From assembly GCA_963663405.2 (NCBI GenBank), contig CAXXSM010000053.1, forward strand, positions 194,568-258,567: a stretch of DNA of 64,000 bases, read 5' to 3'. The notes beneath the pieces are model-generated. The model was not told the DNA's origin. It saw only the letters and a list, made by a program, of their open reading frames with translations, and made no database searches. A program made the translations under genes and the position numbers. Source of the DNA: a bacterium. GTDB taxonomy: Bacteria > Hinthialibacterota > Hinthialibacteria > Hinthialibacterales > Hinthialibacteraceae. Each line of letters begins with the position of its first letter. The first letter of the stretch is position 1. This document shows positions 9,420 to 56,425 of the stretch, piece by piece.

Positions 9420-9474
9420 AAGGCAGTATGTTATGAACGATTCCTAGAATTAAAATACTGAATTATTGCCTTTT

Positions 9475-9520
9475 GTCCCACAGGGACATTATAAAATAGC
9501 CTAGGATTTCAATCCTGGGC
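9475..9520. repeat. REP-like double palindrome
   Basis: gtccc-aca-gggac hairpin followed by gcctaggatttcaatcctgggc hairpin just after a stop codon. Confidence 0.5.
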
Positions 9521-28987: not shown

Positions 28988-29706
28988 CTAATATAAATTA
29001 GGCCGCAAAATTGGGGAGTTATGGATTGGATGTGGGGGGGGAGGAGAGGGGTGGTGTTATGGGTTTTGTGGATGTTGTGATGGGCTGCGCTTCGTATTTT
29101 GCCTACCGGGCTTGATAGTTCTGCTCATCAATGCCAGGGCAGAAAAAAGCCTTGCCCTGGGTACCCAGTTATGGGTTGGTTTTTGTGTATACGGAGGGGG
29201 GGAAGGAGAGCGGTGGTGTTGTGGGTTTGGTGGATGTAGTGATGGGCTACGCTTCGCTTTTAGCCCATCCTACCGGATTACCGAGTTGGAGGTTTTGTTT
29301 TTATCTCTTCGATCGACCAGTTTATCTTTGTGTTTATTCTACCGCGCCTGGAGATCGGCGATAATTTCCATCATGTTGTGATGGTGTTTTTCGGTATACG
29401 AATCCCGGATTCGCCATACCTCTTGTATGATTTCATCTTTATACATTTAACTTATGATTGACGTTTCAATGTAGACGCTCTTCTTCATTTTTCCAAGCTA
29501 GCATTCCACAGACGAATTCGCAACCTTAAGAAGAAAGGGCTACGCTTTGTTTTTAGCTTATTCTATCGGGCTAATATAAATTAGGCCGCAAAATTTTGGG
29601 AGTTATGGGTTGGGGTTGTGGATACGGTGGGGAAGAGTGGTGGTGTTGTGAGTTTTGTGGATGTTGTGATGGGCTACGCTTCGCTTTTAGCCCATCCTAC
29701 CGGATT
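28988..29706. repeat. Composite repeat region: three G/T-rich units of about 110-130 bp ending in family A REPs, plus one family B REP
   Basis: ctaatataaattaggccgcaaaatt is identical at 28988 and 29571; gatgggctacgcttcgcttttagcccatcctac occurs at 29241 and 29668; family B copy at 29133-29166. Confidence 0.8.
29270..29488 (-). pseudogene. Remnant PIN-domain toxin start plus downstream small partner gene with an in-frame stop
   Basis: 29488-29447 encodes MKKSVYIETSIIS* (PIN-family N-terminus). 29446 onward encodes MYKDEIIQEVWRIRDSYTEKHHHNMMEIIADLQAR*(TAG)NKHKDKLVDRR. Confidence 0.65.
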
Positions 29707-43949: not shown

Positions 43950-46900
43950 TCAATTATTGATGATGAGTTCAACGCCGCATAGAACCGGCTGACTTTGGAG
44001 AGTCGTAGGCGCCAGATCAATGACAAGGTTTTCCGCGATGGACACATCTTGGAATTCTTTGATCAATACCCGCTTGGGGGAGCCCGTTTCTTTTACGATA
44101 TCAAGATTACGCAGAACTCGTAAGTTTTGCAGCGAGACATCAAAGACGCGGGCGCCGGGTTGGGCGTTTGTATCCGGTTCCATGAAGATCAATCGAACTG
44201 TATAGAGTGAGTCCGGCCGGGGATTTTTTGTAAGAGGGATTGTGAGTTGTCTTATCCCTTCAGCGCCTGAGGCGGCGACCCATTTTAACTCCTCACCACT
44301 GACCCAGATCGAATGATGGCGGAAATAGTGAATCTCTTCCGGCTCCGTTTGTATCTCAATTTCGGGGGAAGGGCTTCCTGCGAGAGGGTATTCAAGCCAG
44401 AGCGTTCCATTGCCGGTTTTTCTGTCCCCAGGCGCTCCCAGGTTGATTCCGATTTGTTGTATGGGCGCGCCGGTCCACTCGAATGAATTGAACGTCCACA
44501 CTTCCACATCGGGATCATGGATCATTGCCAGCGACGTTTGATTTTGGTAACTGCACGAGCAGGTGCGAGTATAGTCCGGGGCGTTGAGAACGCCATTCGC
44601 GATGATGAGGTTGGATGTGCAACTCGATTTAAAGCCGCCAAAGTTGCCCGTGCCTCCATCCTGCGCTAAATCAAAAAAACCCGCGGCTGCAGAGCGAAAG
44701 GTAAGGAGATGTTCACTTGCGATCGCGTAATTACAGCCATAATTCCGGGTGAAGGTCCAAGGCGCGCGCTCTCCTGTGAGGGGATTGTCGCGTTGGATTG
44801 GTTCTCCTGTGCGCAGGTCATAGGCGTTTGGATTCGTGATAATCGATTCACCGTGAATGACAAGAGGAGAAGAGTAAGACGCTTCGTTTTCCCAGAGTCG
44901 AGCGCCGTTATTTCCAGTATAAGCCACCATGCCTTTCGAGGGCTCATCGACGGTCATATCTCTCGATGCGCGTCCTGACTCCACCAGAATGTCTAACGGT
45001 TCGGAATATCCCAACCAAGTTCCAAAGACGTTTTCCGTTTTGCTCCATAGGATATCGCCATTGTGGATGTTGAAAGCTATTATCCGGGGGGAACCTGTGA
45101 AGGTTATGCCTCTTCGTTTCATTTTGTTTTGGACGTGATCGGGTATTTTATCGATGCAGAATAGCTTCCCATTTCCCATGGCGATCGCGTTATGCCGCAG
45201 ACCTAAACTGGATTGGAATGTCCATCGTATGGCGCCGGTATGCCGGTCCATTATGATGAGACTTTTGCTTGCGGATGTATCGAAATCGTAGAACATTCTC
45301 CTTTTTTCTGAAATATCCGCATCGATTTCAAAAAGAGGTTTGTAATAAACAAATTCGGCGCCTGCGACCAGGTAGTCTTGATAGACGCCGATATAGCCCC
45401 AGTCCGGTGGGGTGTCTTTGCCAGGAAGGGTGGGGAGTGCGATCGTGTTGATCGTCTCACCCGTGGCTGGATCGAGAACGAGGCATTGACTTCCTTGGAT
45501 GATATACACTCCATCACTCGTTACGACGTAGTTCGTTCCCCGCGCGTTCGCGCCAGGAATGTGGATCTGGTTGTAAGCGGGACTGAGCGGCGTGTCTTGA
45601 TAGGTATGATCGAAATAGACGCCATAGTTGCCTAAATTGGGAAGAGTCCGCTTCCATAGCACCCGGCCCGTGTAAACATCCCGCGCGCTGAGACAGTCCA
45701 TGCCTTGAATGATGAGACGCCCATCCATTACCTGTTCGGGGGGGCCATGACCATGCCTTGGCAACACATCCATGTTTGAATTGCCGCCGAACCAGAGGAT
45801 ACCCAGTGGAAGTTTGACTCGTCGATCGTTGGATTTGATGGTATTGGCGGCGTTACCGTATTGATGGGTCCAATCGGCGGAACCGGTGAGAGCGCCTTCT
45901 CGAACGAGCTGGAATTGATCCGCGGTTTCGTAGATCTTCGCGTTGGGTAAATTCAGCTGATTGATGGTTCGGATGAGAGAGACGCGGTCATTCTCACCGG
46001 CTTTGAAGCAAGCGGCGCCACCATAAGGACGCAGACTGCGAAAGATATGGTTCCAAAAGGTTTCATCGTTTCCTCTATTCGCCGCTTGGTAATCTTCGAT
46101 GACTGTTAGACTGGCGAGGTAAGGAGGGGCTTCCAATGTGACTGGATCGCCGGTCAGAACCGTCAACCGTTTCCCGTATAAACCTGACTCGGTAAATCGT
46201 CTTCGAAGGCGGTCCACTTTCGCGGGATCGGGATCGGCGGCGATGACGCGCAGTTTGGATTGACGAACGAGCGCCTCGGCTAGATCGCCATTTGTAAGTC
46301 CATAGACCAGGCAGTATCCTTCATGAATACCGGTTGTTTTGAGGATGGTTTCCGCTTCACTCACAATGGAATCGGGGAGGGGATCGCTTTTGGTTTCATT
46401 TGGGTAGAATTTCGTTTCAATCTCTTCACCGCCGAAGCAATAGAGGCGCCCTTCCAGCGTCACGGCATAGAGCCGGTCATTCGCTGCAACGATCCGGGCG
46501 GCAGTACCTTCGATTGGGGCTTGCCACGCCAATCTTGGGGAGCCGCCAGTGGTGGGCAGGTCAATCGCGGATATGCAATTTTGGCCCCCTGCGTAGAGCC
46601 GGTTTCCGGCTTTAATTAGATCGCCAGTTGCGTCGATCTTCATTTCCCACAATGTGTCGAGCACCCACTTTTTTTTCGTAACGAGTTTGACTTCGTTGGT
46701 TCGTCTATCCCGTTCTGTTGTTTCGTATTCGATCTGTCTCAGATTTGCGAAGTCATGGGCGATGATGGTTTCTCCCATGCTGTATAGGGCTGTTTCCGTC
46801 AAAACGGGGATCTTGCCGAATTGCGGAAGCACCAGATCGCCTTCGTTTATGTCGTAGAGGCTGGTGACAAAATCGCGGTGATAGTTGACATATTTATCCC

Positions 46901-47747
46901 CGATCGCGGCGACAAAAGCGCCACCGGTTTTGTTGTGTTCCGCGAAACGGTAGTAGAGATAGGCGCCGGTTTTTAGATCGAAACAGGCTGGAACCGAGCG
47001 CCCGCCGGGAACGAGTAAGCGATCTCCAGCGATGGTGAGGTATCCTTGGGGGGCGACATTGGCGAAGGAGGGGGAGTTGTGAGGTTGTTTGATGTATATA
47101 AAGCCGAAACCATCATTAGTCCAGATTTCTTCACCGGTCTCCGCGTCCAACGCGTATAAAAACACGCCCATGAACGGCCAGATGCCGGCGCCGAAATAGA
47201 TGATTCCATCTTTCAACACCGGCGCGCCCCGCATGGGCCATGTGGAGATCAAGCGCTCGTTTCCCAACACTTTGCGATGCGATGGGACAGCGCGGAATTT
47301 CCAATTGAGCGTTCCCTTTCCGGCGTCCAGGCAATAGAGGCAGCCGTCGTCACAGGCGAAATAGAGGTTTCCATTGGAGGCGATGGGAGAGAAGCGGATC
47401 GGTCCATCCGCATGGAATGTCCATTTTTCCGCGCCTGTGTTCGCGTTTAAGGCGACGATCCGGTCGTATGCGTTCGAAGCGATAAAGAGCGTTTCTCCAT
47501 ACACAACCGGCTCGTAGACTTTGTCATACTGCATTAAATCCAAGTTGAGAGGATCATCCCAGACGGGATCGAGCGCGGGGTATTCTCGTATCCATTGTGC
47601 GTAGAGTTGTTCGGGAAGCTCCTGTGGAGAAGCGGCGCTGTGGTTCGCATCATAGCGCCACATCGGCCAGTCGGCGCTATTTGCATCTATATAACTGCTT
47701 AGTAACAATGAAGTCAACGCAAACCATCGAAATATATATACTTTCAT
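43950..47747 (-). CDS. Secreted tandem PQQ-like beta-propeller protein with methyltransferase-like middle domain and C-terminal malectin-like domain
   Basis: DWPMWRYD, ALDAETGEEIW, GYCLVYG...LRPYGG, DWTHQYG, RNYGC/SSC/TCSCSY, YTVRLIFME...GARVFDVSLQ. Confidence 0.85.
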   Translation of the reverse strand: MKVYIFRWFALTSLLLSSYIDANSADWPMWRYDANHSAASPQELPEQLYAQWIREYPALDPVWDDPLNLDLMQYDKVYEPVVYGETLFIASNAYDRIVALNANTGAEKWTFHADGPIRFSPIASNGNLYFACDDGCLYCLDAGKGTLNWKFRAVPSHRKVLGNERLISTWPMRGAPVLKDGIIYFGAGIWPFMGVFLYALDAETGEEIWTNDGFGFIYIKQPHNSPSFANVAPQGYLTIAGDRLLVPGGRSVPACFDLKTGAYLYYRFAEHNKTGGAFVAAIGDKYVNYHRDFVTSLYDINEGDLVLPQFGKIPVLTETALYSMGETIIAHDFANLRQIEYETTERDRRTNEVKLVTKKKWVLDTLWEMKIDATGDLIKAGNRLYAGGQNCISAIDLPTTGGSPRLAWQAPIEGTAARIVAANDRLYAVTLEGRLYCFGGEEIETKFYPNETKSDPLPDSIVSEAETILKTTGIHEGYCLVYGLTNGDLAEALVRQSKLRVIAADPDPAKVDRLRRRFTESGLYGKRLTVLTGDPVTLEAPPYLASLTVIEDYQAANRGNDETFWNHIFRSLRPYGGAACFKAGENDRVSLIRTINQLNLPNAKIYETADQFQLVREGALTGSADWTHQYGNAANTIKSNDRRVKLPLGILWFGGNSNMDVLPRHGHGPPEQVMDGRLIIQGMDCLSARDVYTGRVLWKRTLPNLGNYGVYFDHTYQDTPLSPAYNQIHIPGANARGTNYVVTSDGVYIIQGSQCLVLDPATGETINTIALPTLPGKDTPPDWGYIGVYQDYLVAGAEFVYYKPLFEIDADISEKRRMFYDFDTSASKSLIIMDRHTGAIRWTFQSSLGLRHNAIAMGNGKLFCIDKIPDHVQNKMKRRGITFTGSPRIIAFNIHNGDILWSKTENVFGTWLGYSEPLDILVESGRASRDMTVDEPSKGMVAYTGNNGARLWENEASYSSPLVIHGESIITNPNAYDLRTGEPIQRDNPLTGERAPWTFTRNYGCNYAIASEHLLTFRSAAAGFFDLAQDGGTGNFGGFKSSCTSNLIIANGVLNAPDYTRTCSCSYQNQTSLAMIHDPDVEVWTFNSFEWTGAPIQQIGINLGAPGDRKTGNGTLWLEYPLAGSPSPEIEIQTEPEEIHYFRHHSIWVSGEELKWVAASGAEGIRQLTIPLTKNPRPDSLYTVRLIFMEPDTNAQPGARVFDVSLQNLRVLRNLDIVKETGSPKRVLIKEFQDVSIAENLVIDLAPTTLQSQPVLCGVELIINN

Positions 47748-48089
47748 ATATCAATCCTATTGGCATATCAACGTGTCTTGTACGTTTGTGAATGTAAATG
47801 TAGTCGATTGTTCTCGTGTATTAACTTATACAATGTAATTATTTGATTGGCTCGAATGTTTTTGTTAGGATTGTATTAGCTGATTGGTTTCTATGATAAA
47901 ACCAATGATTGTTAATACGCGCATTATTCATTGAGCAATCATAACAAAAATATTAATTCATTCGAACGAATCATGACGCTTTCATGTAATAAGAAAGTTT
48001 ATCGTTATGAGGATAGATCGCAACGGTTTTGGAGCGAGTTTATGAGTTGGAGATATGGTGGAAAATGCGTTGTTACGCCTATGTCTCAA

Positions 48090-52096: not shown

Positions 52097-52362
52097 GTCA
52101 GGGGAGAACGAAGTCTTGCTCTGGGCACCCGTACTATTTAAGAATGTGGGATGAAGCCAGGGCAGAAAAAAGCCTTGCCCTGGGTACCCGGTGAATGTGG
52201 GATAACCGCCAGGATAGGAGCAAAGTCTTGCCCTTGGGCGCCCGGTCGAAGAAGGTGAAGGCTCCGGCGCGAGCGCCGGTACTTGCCCTAGGTACCCCGC
52301 TCTATTCAAGTGTGGTTTGGAATAAGGCAAAGGCAGATGAAAAAACCTTGCCTTTGCTACCC
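52097..52362. repeat. Array of five degenerate family B palindromes
   Basis: Units at about 52097, 52156, 52208, 52261 and 52327 share cttgccctgggtaccc-like ends, separated by 16-28 nt. Confidence 0.8.
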
Positions 52363-52439: not shown

Positions 52440-53580
52440 TTAGAGAGGATCGGTCCAGACGCCGGGGATTTTGGTTTTGCATTTTTTGCAGACGCCGTTC
52501 TCCATTCCTTCGATTGTTGTGCGGTAGCCGAGTCGGCGGATCAGTAATTCGCCGCAGGAATGGCAGTTGGTGTTTTCGGCGGGATGACCAGGGACATTGC
52601 CGATGTAGACGTAATTCGCGCCCGCGTCCTGGGCGATTTTACGCAGCCGTTCTAGCGTGCGCACCGGTGTGGAGGGAAGATTTTTGATTTTGTACATGGG
52701 ATGGAAGCGGGTAAGATGAATCGGCGTATCGGGGCCAAGGTGTTCGATGATCCATTTGGTCATGTCACGGTTTTCTTCGTCGCTGTCGTTCAGGGTGGGG
52801 ATAATCAAGACGACCAGTTCCAGCCAGCATTTGAGTTCGTGAATGATTTCCAGTGATTTTAAGACCGGTTTCAATTCTCCATTGCAGATTTCTTTGTAAA
52901 ATTTCTCCGTGTATCCCTTAAAGTCGATTTTTATCCCCGTGAGGTTGGGAACGAGTTCACGGAGGGGTTTCTCCTGAATGTAACCGTTGGAGATCATGAC
53001 GCTGCCGATCTTTTTTTTGCGGGCTTCGATGGCGGTATCGCGCATGTATTCATAGAAAATGACTGGTTCGGAATAGGTGTAGGCGATTGACTGGCTTTTG
53101 GTTTGATAGGCCAGTTGAACTGTCTCGGCTGGGGGCAGATCGATCATTCGGACCTGTTCGGGGCGGAACTGGGAAATGTCCCAATTCTGGCAGAATTTAC
53201 ATTCAATATTGCAGCCCGCGGTGGCGATTGGAAAACGCCTGTGAGCCTGGAAGATAATGAAAGAGCGGTTTTTTTTCAATGGGGGTCGACATGAAGGGAA
53301 CAGGGGACGCCCGTAGACAAAGGAACGGTAGACGCCATCCACGTTTTCCCGGACGCCGCAGTAGCCTCTTTCGCCGTCCGCCACGCGGCATTCTTTCGGA
53401 CAGAGCTGGCAGCGGATTTTTTTCTCGTCCAGTTTTTCATAATACATCGCTTCATGATCGGAGACATCGTTTGTTGTGGGCAGTGTGACCGCGCCCGAAC
53501 ATTCGGCTCCCCCCATCGCCAGGGCGCAGCCACAGGCGATCGATGAATGTAAAAAATTGACGGCGATCGATCGAATTCAT
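52440..53580 (-). CDS. amrS: AmmeMemoRadiSam system radical SAM enzyme with Tat signal; frameshifts
   Basis: CQLCPKEC..GYCGVREN, PIEKKPLFHYLPG (shifted frame), GCNIECKFCQNWDISQ (CxxxCxxC), AYTYSEP, YVYIGNVPGH, C-terminal CHSC..CKKC. Removing one T from a T6 run gives MNSIDRRQFLHSSIACGCALAMGG. Confidence 0.92.
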
Positions 53581-53601
53581 TCTCTCAATCCTTGTGTGAC
53601 C

Positions 53602-54619
53602 TTAAGTCGTGATTTCTTTCAGTTCAATATGAGCTGGATCGCGCCCAGCCGATTTTTTTCTCTTCCGCCAGTTGAATGTAGAGCGGTTCCCGCCCGGCGT
53701 CTTTAAAGGAAGGGAGTTTCATTTCCTTCCGTTTTTCTTCTAAAATGCGCGCTCCCACCGCGTCCAAGGCTACTATATCAGTTGAGATCAAGAGTCCGCC
53801 ATATTCCCAGGCGCGGTTGGCTTTGAAGGCGGGGCCGCCGTCGTATTGCCCGCGGAATCCATCGCAGATCGACAGGCGGTGCTTGTTTTTCACATAGTCA
53901 TGAAGACACAAATCCGGCAAGTAGGGATCCTTGTTAACGTCGAAGTGATACCGGTTTGGATTGTGAATCAAACCGAAGAGATTTCTTCATCGCGACGGAT
54001 GTGCCGGAAAGGTCGTGGTCTTTTAGAATTCCTACGTTGATCAGCGCTGTGCAGGCTTTGGAGATGATGCGGGAAAAACAGGAGCCGATGCTTTCGTGGA
54101 TTTCCGGGCGTGGTTGATAGCCGACGCCTTGGCTGTCCGGTGGCGATTACAACCGCCCGGCCTTTGGCGGACGCGGCGTCGAAGCCCGCCTGTTTCAATT
54201 CCCGTTCGCTGCGGTCCCAGACGAATATTTTTCTGTGGAGAAACACCGGCTTGCGCTAATCGTTCTGCGATCGCGTAGACTAGTTCGGGATGTGGGGAGA
54301 GCATCCGCCCTCCCAGCCGCGTTTACTTTAATTCCCACAATATCGTATTTGGTGAAAAGAGGGAACGCCATACGTCCAATGGATCTTTTTTATCACCCAA
54401 CGCGCGCATCGATTCATCCAGCATTGACGCTACAGCGTTTGTGTCAAGAGAATTCGGAGATTGAAGAACGCCCATCTTGCGGGCGAGTGTCACACGGCTT
54501 TTTCCCGTTTGGCCGGCCGGCTGTGGAGCGGCGGCCGTATGGTTGGGAAGCCAGAGCGATGGCCCGGTTATGAGACCTGTTCCCATACTATATAAGAAAG
54601 CGCGGCGTTTGATTTTCAT
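53602..54619 (-). CDS. Tat-exported DUF362 family protein; frameshifts
   Basis: MKIKRRAFLYSMG (Tat); IVGIKVN; PELVYAI..L; IFVWDR; LINVGILKDH..SVAMK; IHNP; ICDG..GQYDGGP; DIVALDAVG. Confidence 0.85.
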
Positions 54620-54622
54620 CGA

Positions 54623-56153
54623 TTAGGATTCCTTGACTGAAAGGTCTTTGAAGAGTTCCGCGAATACCTGCGCGGTGAAGGTTTTGAATGCGCAGCCGGA
54701 TCTCCAATCGTCAGTTTTGAGACCAGCCTTTTCGCATAAATGGTTGAGCGTCTCTTCCACGTTCCAGCCCTGCTCTAATGCTACTTGTGGCAGATAGACC
54801 GCAGAGCGGTTATTCCTTTTCGATGATGACGCCATCCCGCCCCAAGACGATTTCTTTCCATGAATCAATTTTCTTTTTTTTGGGGGGGGACATGACGGAG
54901 ATTTCGATATCGATTTTTTCCATCTCTTCTTCGGTCAACGGTTGGAACCGGTGGTCGCCGAACGCTGAGGAGAGGACGGTTTTTGCGATCGTTTTATAAA
55001 GTGGTTCGGTTCCCACCATTTGGCCGATGCAGCCCCGCAGACGCCCTTCTTTATGCAGTGTAACGAAGACGACCGTTTTTTTCTTTTAGCCGGGGTGTGA
55101 TTTTCTCTTCCGGGGGCGTGTATTCTGTGGCTTTTTTTTGATTGAAAGGTTTGTTCAAGGGTTTTACGGGCGATTTCGATCGCGACAGCGCCGTTTCTTC
55201 TTCGTTGAGATAATCGGATCGTTCGCGGAAGACAAGGGAACAGTAACTGACGGTCTCTTTGTAATCGTTCTGTTTATCGCCGGACGTTTCATAGTGCGTA
55301 AATTCAACTTGCGTTTGCAGTGGGAGAGCGAGCATGGCGATCTTAATCGGATTGCGTCCGCAGATCGTCGCCCTGCGTTCCATCTGTAAACGCCCAAAAT
55401 CCGCGCACGTCAAGGTTTAATATGTGATTGACCGCCGCGAAATCCAACCGCTGGACGTTCTTTTTAATGTCGGTTTTGAATGGTTGATAGGCGAAACGGG
55501 GGCCTTGATGAGTGAAGTCTGAACTAACAACAAGTAGTGTATCCGCATCAAGCAAAGGGCGTATGCGGTTGGCGATTTCTTTGCAGTCATCGATGGTGAG
55601 TTCGCTGATGACGATGGGAATTAATTGGAAATCGTTCAGCGTCCGTTGGAGGAAAAGGCAGCTGGATTTCCAGGCTGTGTTCCTGGGTATGCGCATCCTT
55701 GTGGTTACCGATAGCGGGGGAAGTAAGAAGAGAGTCGCAGGCTGTCCGGTCGAGGGGGACCTGTCCCCAGCGGCGTTTCGTATGCTTCCACATCCGCGAT
55801 CGAACCGCCCCGGAAATATGGCCGGTCCGGTGCGAGGGGCCCAAAAGAATCACCCGCTTGTAGGACGCGCCTTGGATCGCTTTATAGGAATAGGCGGCGG
55901 TTTGGCCTGACCAGTCGTAGCCCGCATGAGGCGCGATCAACGCCCGGACCCGTGAGGCGTTCTCCGACGCGCTGGGAATGTTTTTTAAATATCCATCGAT
56001 CTGTTTTGTTAACGCTGTTTTTGATTCCGTGTACCAACTTCCCGCCAGTACGGAAGAACGGACTTTGGTCTTCTCCGGCGTGTCGGCGGAGACCGAACAG
56101 GCGTGAGTCAACAGACAAACCAATAGAAAGAGAACGCCGTGATTTTTTTTCAA
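54623..56153 (-). CDS. amrB: AmrB (Memo-like)-AmrA (AMMECR1) fusion with N-terminal signal peptide; frameshifts
   Basis: AGSWY, PHAGY, GPSH, EHSLEIQLPF, SSDFTH, TICG (Memo); then FVTLHKEGRLRGCIG, DHRF, IEISVMS, YLPQVA, LCEKAG (AMMECR1). Confidence 0.9.
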
Positions 56154-56280: not shown

Positions 56281-56425
56281 GAAGAAAGTAAAGGACTCCG
56301 GCGCGAGAGATGGTACTTGCCCTGGGCGCCTGTTTTATGTATTAAGATTGGGGGATCAATGCCAGGGCAGAAAAAAGCCTTGCCCTGGGCGCCCGGCGAG
56401 ATCTGGTACTTGTCCTGGCTACCCA
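56281..56425. repeat. Cluster of three family B palindromes
   Basis: actccggcgcgagagatggtacttgccctgggcgcc resembles the 52261 unit; atcaatgccagggcagaaaaaagccttgccctggg is identical to the copy at about 29127; tggtacttgtcctggctaccc. Confidence 0.8.

Follow-up and report, generated by a model that had tools for sequence, protein, structure and literature searches.

A 64,000-nucleotide stretch of contig CAXXSM010000053.1 from a bacterium of the Hinthialibacterota (NCBI GenBank assembly GCA_963663405.2; hereafter the window) carries a minus-strand operon at 52440-56153 that appears to encode an extracytoplasmic form of the AmmeMemoRadiSam system. Its three genes code for a fusion of Memo (AmrB) to AMMECR1 (AmrA), a DUF362 protein, and AmrS, the radical S-adenosylmethionine (SAM) enzyme of the system. 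Export leaders are recognised on all three proteins; leaderless family members have N-terminal extensions of 25 amino acids (aa) or fewer. The AmmeMemoRadiSam trio is little understood, and the function of Memo and AMMECR1 is unsolved. We put the probability that this is an intact operon for an extracytoplasmic AmmeMemoRadiSam, harmed only by assembly insertions, at roughly two in three. The original prediction, made from the DNA letters, was that the whole system is exported; this interpretation is supported by the comparisons below, from which we infer both export and periplasmic radical SAM turnover.

The three genes lie on one strand and are tightly packed, as had been claimed, with 3 nt between the fusion and DUF362 genes and 21 nt between the DUF362 stop (53602) and the AmrS ATG (53580). 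The three N-termini quoted in the original prediction all exist, reading from a TTG at 56153 for the Memo leader, an ATG at 54619 for DUF362 and the ATG at 53580 for AmrS. The AmrS fragment scores 328.4 bits against TIGR04337 (cut-off 220); the intact AmrS ortholog from the relatives' locus L017 scores 387.3 bits, and all 18 orthologs that we compared match the model. Three Memo fragments score 109.6, 46.0 and 29.3 bits against TIGR04336 (cut-off 26), with a concordant six-frame search. Two AMMECR1 fragments reach 60.7 and 55.1 bits against PF01871, and the domain scores 107.9 bits in the six-frame search against TIGR04335, above the cut-off of 99; taken singly, the fragments reach just 63.1 and 46.8 bits against this model because of a frame break. 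The C-terminal fragment of DUF362 matches PF04015 at 26 bits and intact orthologs do so with E-values of 1.3e-19 or better. Cysteines C129, C133 and C136 of the AmrS CxxxCxxC motif and an N-terminal Cys motif are invariant in the 18 orthologs. The Memo motifs PHAGY, SDFxH and ICG and the AMMECR1 motif LRGCIG are present; we take these to be sites of metal-binding residues.

As assembled, all three reading frames are broken. Using our own frameshift-aware alignment guided by the intact L017 orthologs, we located 18 frame breaks, 8 in Memo-AMMECR1, 6 in DUF362 and 4 in AmrS. The single homopolymer frameshift originally noticed in AmrS is real, in that an extra base in a T-run near 53556 cuts the ATG off from a 358-aa open reading frame (ORF), but it is one break among the 18. 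At each break the assembly has one base or two too many, usually in a short homopolymer (10 bases over 8 insertions in the fusion, 7 over 6 in DUF362, and 4 single-base insertions in AmrS), there are no in-frame stops, and identity to the L017 orthologs amounts to 314/498 residues for the fusion, 220/333 for DUF362 and 285/380 for AmrS. We then placed on the window the Logan contigs of two public runs, which cover most of the stretch. Contigs of run X1, possibly the source sample, show 0 substitutions over 2 kb, and those of run X2, from another study, show 33 over 2.7 kb. Among the positions listed, contigs of both runs omit one base at 53228, 53303, 53642, 53982, 54139, 54228, 54317 and 54815 and two bases at 54346, at a depth of only 2-3x, and all of these are places flagged by the alignment. 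The read contigs bear out at least nine of the 18 corrections. Because the extra bases are missing from the contigs of both runs, we attribute the breaks to insertions in the assembly, and the three genes are most likely intact in the organism. The same damage is seen around the operon: ORFs of up to 1266 aa occur at 1-48 kb of the window, and the 48-64 kb region is fragmented by single-base insertions, with the A2M-family, OPT transporter and apiosidase-like genes there likewise split. The genome's TatC gene (G000:C91:6426-7236, minus strand) is also split over two frames, indicating that assembly indels extend beyond this window. Eighteen frame breaks within 3.7 kb, with broken neighbors, might instead be thought to mark a decaying pseudogene cluster whose leaders are irrelevant relics. 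We find this scarcely credible and rejected it on the alignment and read-contig evidence: the breaks are all insertions with no in-frame stop, protein identity to orthologs stays at 63-75% throughout every frame, runs that include one from another study omit the extra bases, and the first 48 kb of the window are clean.

Leaders were called with our own hydropathy and charge heuristic together with conservation. The TIGR04337 model begins at residue 51 of an intact AmrS ortholog, and ahead of it R7, R8 and F10 are invariant in 18/18 orthologs. In DUF362, R6 and R7 are invariant in 14/14 orthologs and at least 90% conserved among 93 homologs. Loss of the twin arginines (RR) in orthologs had been named beforehand as evidence that would speak against export; they are conserved in both families. 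A weak match to NapG spans residues 3-72 of an AmrS ortholog (E 0.016), and the genome encodes a twin-arginine translocation (Tat) translocase, with TatC (129.5 and 93.3 bits, in two frames) and TatA (54.2 bits) all on contig C91. The leader of the fusion keeps the same layout in orthologs. Its hydrophobic core ends in a Cys in most same-family orthologs, with residues -3 to -1 often non-canonical and a small-x-small site following, so that it could be a general secretory (Sec) signal cleaved by signal peptidase I or a lipoprotein signal. Of the Sec-type leader originally proposed for this protein, the conserved hydrophobic leader holds, and the conserved Cys at the core end makes a lipoprotein signal possible as well.

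The leaders would be meaningless if the true translation starts lay downstream and the extensions were translated intergenic sequence, and in some orthologs an internal Met does occur close to where the family model begins. We regard this as very improbable. The RR and F residues are invariant, the extension is conserved as protein over orthologs of 54-81% identity and across phyla, and only 21 nt, ending in a purine-rich stretch immediately 5' of the AmrS ATG, separate that codon from the DUF362 stop. Moreover, among the 119 closest clusters at 90% identity in which the core start is included, 95 carry an extension of more than 25 aa with RR or Lys-Arg (KR) followed by an uncharged run, 19 have another extension of more than 25 aa, and only 5 have 25 aa or fewer. 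A misplaced start was rejected on the invariant residues and this extension census, and the starts assumed in the original prediction stand.

A search of 41 genomes (the window's own and 40 relatives) identified AmrS orthologs with 64-72% identity in 11 of the 19 same-family genomes and with 56-60% identity in all six same-order genomes searched. We compared 10 kb around 18 of these (loci L015-L032). In the same-family and f3 loci the order is Memo-AMMECR1 fusion (~500 aa), DUF362 (~337 aa) and AmrS (~385 aa), and four f2 loci hold DUF362 and AmrS alone. Memo genes occur in 14 of the 18 loci; 13 of them are fused to AMMECR1 and 13 have a called hydrophobic leader (14/15 when independent loci are counted). 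DUF362 lies directly upstream of AmrS in all 17 relatives' loci with enough upstream sequence. Most of these relatives also carry a second AmrS at 32-40% identity, which has no hydrophobic N-terminal extension (18/18 loci) and no Memo, AMMECR1 or DUF362 gene within ~5 kb (18/18 loci). The genome that holds the window (82% complete) yielded no second AmrS above the cut-off.

To place the leader in a wider context, we searched 1.84 billion representative sequences with a profile of the 18 AmrS orthologs, obtaining 9614 matches at E<=1e-3 and 2214 at E<=1e-30. The best 150 were inspected, and 139 of them include the start of the core domain. Of these, 82 have an extension of 25 aa or fewer, 13 are long fusions, 23 have a 26-120 aa extension with RR or KR and then an uncharged run, and 21 have another extension of 26-120 aa, of which about 10 still show RR and three resemble membrane anchors or lipoproteins. 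In the representative P0065 (803 aa), an AmrS homolog, an intein with a LAGLIDADG endonuclease domain splits the protein. Scanning a single genome for each species yielded 80 named loci from many phyla, classed by hidden Markov model (HMM) and heuristic into 37 Tat-like, 3 transmembrane (TM)-anchored, 6 with a long extension and no call, 2 of unknown class and 32 leaderless. AmrS leaders of the Bacteroidota have KR in place of RR.

We built a tree from the core domains of 117 AmrS proteins (IQ-TREE, LG+G4, quick search). One 73-row group in it, which spans many phyla and has a Shimodaira-Hasegawa-like approximate likelihood ratio (SH-aLRT) of 99, takes in the window's AmrS together with every Tat-like row (55) and every TM row (3). 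The Tat label changes 9 times on the tree, compared with a mean of 39.2 when labels are shuffled. When the 64 leader-bearing or ambiguous rows are constrained to a single clade, the log-likelihood drops by 0.38 units, and the approximately unbiased test does not reject the constraint (p-AU 0.505). Archaeal AmrS, most AmrS of Thermodesulfobacteriota and 'delta proteobacterium' records, and the family's own paralogs lie outside this group, so that the core domain of the operon's AmrS belongs to a clade apart from the leaderless copy of the same genomes. The original prediction had suggested looking for a clade of Tat-bearing AmrS that co-occurs with signal-bearing fusions and RR-bearing DUF362, and this group answers to that description.

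The partners of AmrS vary with its leader. Beside Tat-like AmrS (15 loci), Memo is fused to AMMECR1 in 15/15 and has a leader in 14, with one unclear. Beside leaderless AmrS (6 loci), the fusion is found in 3/6 and the leader is absent from five, with one weak call (L089). Among loci with at least 1.3 kb of sequence upstream of AmrS, DUF362 is the next gene upstream, in the same orientation, in 12/34 Tat-like, 2/4 long-extension and 0/28 leaderless loci; across the 80 loci it is found there only when AmrS has an N-terminal extension. Since AmrS and Memo-AMMECR1 switch compartment tags in step, we infer that the three domains work as one protein machine.

Domain fusions offer a second line of evidence on compartment. 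P0023 and P0024 have one N-terminal TM helix, next FMN_bind and finally AmrS; P0007 has the same arrangement with CBM_11, and P0004 with a Reg_prop/PorZ-type beta-propeller. No additional helix precedes AmrS in any of the four, which by hydropathy count would place AmrS outside the cytoplasm. AmrS is also fused to DsbD_2 (P0013, P0019), to FMN_bind and Fer4_5 with several helices (P0005, P0018), and to DsbD_2-FMN_bind-Fer4_5 (P0020). Triple fusions of AmrS, Memo and AMMECR1, in which the trio is physically joined, occur in P0021, P0034, P0036 and P0058. Similar modules are encoded beside AmrS: a DsbD_2-FMN_bind-Fer4_5 gene lies directly upstream of TM-anchored AmrS in L059 (1744-3432) and L062 (4090-5754), and DsbD_2 alone is near AmrS in L052 (4177-4812) and L058 (8475-9131). 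The loci with DsbD_2 modules beside membrane-anchored AmrS come from Auribacterota, Chlamydiota and Omnitrophota. In Bacteroidota, Thermodesulfobacteriota and one Armatimonadota locus, DUF362 beside leader-bearing AmrS is replaced by a ~700-800-aa protein in which two blocks of 4-7 predicted helices flank a Spermine_synth domain, a fold that binds SAM or decarboxylated SAM. This protein is encoded upstream of AmrS in L066:3688-5829, L069:3846-5984, L074:3699-5798, L075:3801-5942, L077:3813-5942, L090:273-2414, L101:3849-6026 and L105:3526-5946, downstream in L051:4571-6817 and on the opposite strand in L057, and is partial in L063.

We next considered what the DUF362 protein might be. A first structure model from 14 sequences had a predicted local distance difference test (pLDDT) score of 66.9 and no Foldseek match at E<=1e-3, and was replaced by a model from a 93-sequence alignment with pLDDT 90.3 and a predicted TM-score (pTM) of 0.87. 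Foldseek ranks 1-18 in the PDB for this model are all of the LarA family (E 2.1e-6 to 8.4e-4, probability 1.00, TM-score on the query 0.40-0.48), and the model thus predicts that DUF362 is LarA-like in fold. DUF362 and DUF2088 belong to one Pfam clan, CL0471, according to an excerpt of PMC11770544, with which the Foldseek ranking agrees. Sequence searches of the PDB with DUF362 returned nothing relevant, and a profile search gave no LarA at E<=10. In sequence terms the protein matches PF04015 and not Lar_N (PF09861), placing it outside LarA proper. K198, H200, K210, H217 and H223 are among the residues invariant in the 93-sequence alignment. The genome encodes LarC (439.8 bits) and has a weak Lar_N match (36.1 bits), which do not decide whether DUF362 uses the cofactor. 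PF04015 has twelve matches in the genome, including one at C53:18455-19033, on the contig of the operon but away from it, and the family is expanded here.

Taken together, these observations suggest a model that we hold tentatively, with the odds slightly against it in its full form: a multi-phylum radical SAM clade would work outside the cytoplasm, with AmrS either Tat-exported in folded form or helix-anchored, acting on or with a co-exported Memo-AMMECR1, and fed by DsbD_2-FMN_bind-Fer4_5, by the LarA-fold DUF362 or by the 12-14-helix Spermine_synth-like membrane protein. In the operon described here, the fusion would be exported unfolded via Sec and perhaps lipid-anchored, and AmrS and DUF362 would leave via Tat, folded and loaded with cofactor. 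A Sec-exported fusion folds only outside and its tag co-varies with that of AmrS, so AmrS would most likely act directly on, or together with, the Memo-AMMECR1 protein. An action on a protein partner would fit the nearest relatives of AmrS, which are protein-directed activases. The substrate in the leader-bearing clade would be periplasmic or in the envelope, not cytoplasmic RNA. Electrons may arrive through membrane conduits (DsbD_2-FMN_bind-Fer4_5) in some lineages, and here possibly through or with DUF362 as a candidate. SAM may be carried out bound to folded AmrS, allowing one or a few turnovers or being regenerated as a cofactor, or may pass through an exporter, a role for which the membrane protein with the Spermine_synth domain, seen in other lineages, gives a first lead.

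Several points weigh against an extracytoplasmic system. The radical SAM cluster is oxygen-labile, and no gene for a SAM source or reductant is encoded in the window's operon. The leader calls rest on a home-made heuristic, and generic Tat HMMs cover just part of the AmrS set and none of DUF362: TIGR01409 matches 11/18 AmrS at E<=1 (best E 3.2e-4), Pfam TAT_signal (PF10518) matches 2/18 AmrS, and PF10518 matches 0/14 DUF362 orthologs at E<=1, these curated models being brief and of partial sensitivity. The AmrS leader core is unusually rich in Cys, with at least one within 22 residues after RR in 45/55 leaders and two or more in 35/55, often as C-x-G-C or small-small-C across phyla (L015-L105, for example L017:2995-4155), whereas 3/24 DUF362 leaders have any Cys after RR; such an atypical core may reflect metal binding, an uncleaved anchor or a lipobox. 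On the tree, nine leaderless rows in two sub-clades fall inside the 73-row group. The clade put to the approximately unbiased test was chosen after inspection of the tree, so the test does no more than leave a single origin possible. Related genomes are non-independent, so the co-variation counts carry no statistic. For the NosR-like fusions (P0005, P0018, P0020) a crude hydropathy count does not tell which side of the membrane AmrS is on, and these might keep it cytoplasmic. The co-fold of AmrS with DUF362, described below, also belongs among these points. Much of this would suit a different arrangement, in which the RR and hydrophobic segments are uncleaved anchors or Tat-proofreading handles and AmrS does its chemistry at the cytoplasmic face, for example in maturing DUF362 or another Tat client, then stays inside or leaves as a spent passenger. 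SAM and low-potential reductants are cytoplasmic, and there is a parallel in the HXS system, where, as excerpted from PMC13128918, the effector matured by a radical SAM enzyme goes on to act in the periplasm. We nevertheless judge cytoplasmic-face chemistry unlikely. A fusion with a Sec- or lipoprotein-type signal would be unfolded until it is outside, and an AmrS in the cytoplasm could encounter it only while it is a nascent chain; the leaders of the two proteins co-vary (14/15 versus 1/6); and in the single-TM fusions AmrS comes after FMN_bind, CBM_11 or a propeller, without another TM helix in between.

A narrower question is whether DUF362 belongs to the system at all, since the three proteins could be exported with DUF362 as an unrelated neighbor. 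It is absent from 22 of the 34 Tat-like loci whose sequence upstream of AmrS reaches 1.3 kb or more, none was found beside any AmrS of a 22-row Bacteroidota/Omnitrophota sub-clade, and the PF04015 family is numerous in the genome. The co-fold originally proposed was run for mature AmrS with mature DUF362 and passed our mark, with a score of 0.35 (runs 0.21, 0.38 and 0.35; best control 0.00), agreement between runs in at least 91% of contacts and partner pLDDT of at least 90. This mark is reached by 58/80 solved complexes and 2/110 mismatched pairs, and with a score of 0.60 or under it is reached by only 7/80 solved complexes and by both passing mismatches; the result is weak support that, taken alone, is more often wrong than right. 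Against mere proximity, DUF362 is directly upstream of AmrS, on the same strand and with small gaps, in every one of the 17 relatives, and it recurs in this position across phyla before AmrS with leaders or long extensions and never before the leaderless form. We accordingly rate an accidental neighbor as improbable, at about the same level as chemistry at the cytoplasmic face. The suggestion of DUF362 as a fourth partner is narrowed to one sub-clade.

The operon shares with canonical AmmeMemoRadiSam (TIGR04335 AmrA, TIGR04336 AmrB, TIGR04337 AmrS) the same three families above curated cut-offs in adjacent genes, as well as the CxxxCxxC, N-terminal Cys, Memo and AMMECR1 motifs. It differs from the canonical system, which is usually cytoplasmic and free of signal peptides, in having a predicted export signal on every protein, a fused AmrB-AmrA and a Tat-tagged DUF362 between the fusion and AmrS. 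The nearest solved or curated relatives of AmrS are glycyl-radical activases of the PflA, NrdG and YjjW family (PflA 8fo0 and 3c8f, E 7e-10). AmrS scores 51-59 bits against the activase models TIGR04041, TIGR02493 and TIGR02495, far below their cut-offs of 131-250, and is no member of the activase families TIGR02493 (55.3 bits, cut-off 231.75) or TIGR02494 (44.5 bits, cut-off 174.35). These activases are cytoplasmic and act on a protein partner, and the operon here has no glycyl-radical client. The DUF362 model resembles in fold the LarA superfamily of nickel-pincer nucleotide enzymes (CL0471); the protein is ~100 residues shorter than LarA, has a Tat leader and belongs to PF04015 instead of Lar_N. 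Tat-exported Fe-S proteins such as NapG- and HybA-type ferredoxins likewise have an RR leader followed by a cofactor-bearing domain, but the passenger in AmrS is a radical SAM enzyme that needs SAM plus electrons. Sister AmrS clusters are fused to or lie beside FMN_bind, Fer4_5 and DsbD_2, domains of extracytosolic flavinylated electron-transfer modules (NosR/NapH-like and DsbD-like proteins), and the window's operon has no such module. Outside the cytosol, ApbE flavinylates FMN_bind domains of this type (Meheust et al. 2021, PMC8238504, main text), and the terms 'radical', 'Memo', 'AMMECR1' and 'DUF362' appear nowhere in that main text.

Our literature searches found no exported radical SAM enzyme and no signal-bearing AmmeMemoRadiSam; their scope did not extend to Burroughs et al. 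2019 and its supplements, which define Memo-AMMECR1 systems (as cited in an excerpt of PMC7159879) and could mention one. The closest literature item is the HXS defence system, in which it is the effector, and not the radical SAM enzyme, that acts in the periplasm (PMC13128918, in excerpt). Among the public records examined, the AmrS homologs are named either 'AmmeMemoRadiSam system radical SAM enzyme' or 'pyruvate formate lyase activating enzyme', and export is not mentioned. The operon thus apparently represents a real, widespread and undescribed extracytoplasmic variant of a known system, as judged by sequence. The dependence of radical SAM enzymes on SAM, a low-potential electron donor and oxygen-free surroundings is the reason why they are regarded as cytoplasmic, and a conserved, widespread Tat-tagged clade challenges this view, the more strongly for its co-exported partners and genetically linked membrane electron conduits. 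If true, SAM or a SAM-loaded enzyme must cross the membrane, and how SAM reaches the periplasm becomes a new question. The AmmeMemoRadiSam trio would then be a self-contained machine whose substrate need not be nucleic acid: if its members change compartment together, the most likely targets are the members themselves or a small diffusible substrate, and not RNA in the cytoplasm. This offers a handle on the function of Memo and AMMECR1, which are conserved from archaea to humans, and gives DUF362 a predicted structural identity together with a functional context.

Table 1. Genes, predicted leaders and flanking repeats of the operon, in window coordinates.
Feature	Position	Strand	Basis
Memo (AmrB)-AMMECR1 (AmrA) fusion gene, ~500 codons, TTG start	54623..56153	-	TIGR04336, TIGR04335, PF01875 and PF01871 on fragments; L017 alignment
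Putative leader of the fusion: basic residues, hydrophobic core with a terminal Cys, small-x-small site after it	56085..56153	-	ORF translation, orthologs
DUF362 gene, ~333 codons, predicted LarA-like fold	53602..54619	-	PF04015, L017 alignment, structure model
Putative twin-arginine leader of DUF362: RR at codons 5-6, uncharged stretch, Ala-rich end	54521..54619	-	ORF translation, ortholog conservation
AmrS gene, AmmeMemoRadiSam radical SAM enzyme, ~380 codons	52440..53580	-	TIGR04337, L017 alignment
Putative twin-arginine leader of AmrS, outside the TIGR04337 model: RR at codons 6-7, Cys-rich hydrophobic core	53487..53580	-	Conservation, TIGR01409/PF10518
Copies of a dispersed palindromic repeat (repetitive extragenic palindromic (REP)-like), spacer downstream of operon	52097..52306	.	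Repeat search
Copies of the same palindromic REP-like repeat, spacer upstream of operon	56296..56418	.	Repeat search

Within the window, the operon is preceded by the A2M-family gene and followed by the OPT transporter and apiosidase-like genes. The flanking genes of relatives differ, and comparison of these loci found no conserved neighbors besides the three genes. Palindromic repeats lie in the spacers on both sides of the operon, and we considered them as the boundary of a mobile element. This was rejected, as the palindromic unit of ~40-60 nt is dispersed genome-wide, with 102 blastn-short matches over 43 contigs of the genome and a further window copy at 29133-29166. Scans for promoters and terminators gave counts not above those in shuffled sequence (5 versus 3.8 and 10 versus 7.9), and among the runs listed there was no RNA dataset covering the stretch. 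An Rfam scan of the window found no known RNA or riboswitch at the operon; its sole match is an Acido-Lenti-1 sRNA (RF01687) at 9474-9519 on the minus strand, with 42.3 bits against a gathering score of 37. In the clean part of the window, an intact 1266-aa ORF at 43953-47750 (minus strand) encodes PQQ/BamB-type beta-propeller repeats and a C-terminal malectin domain, together with a methyltransferase-like stretch that scores below the Pfam cut-off.

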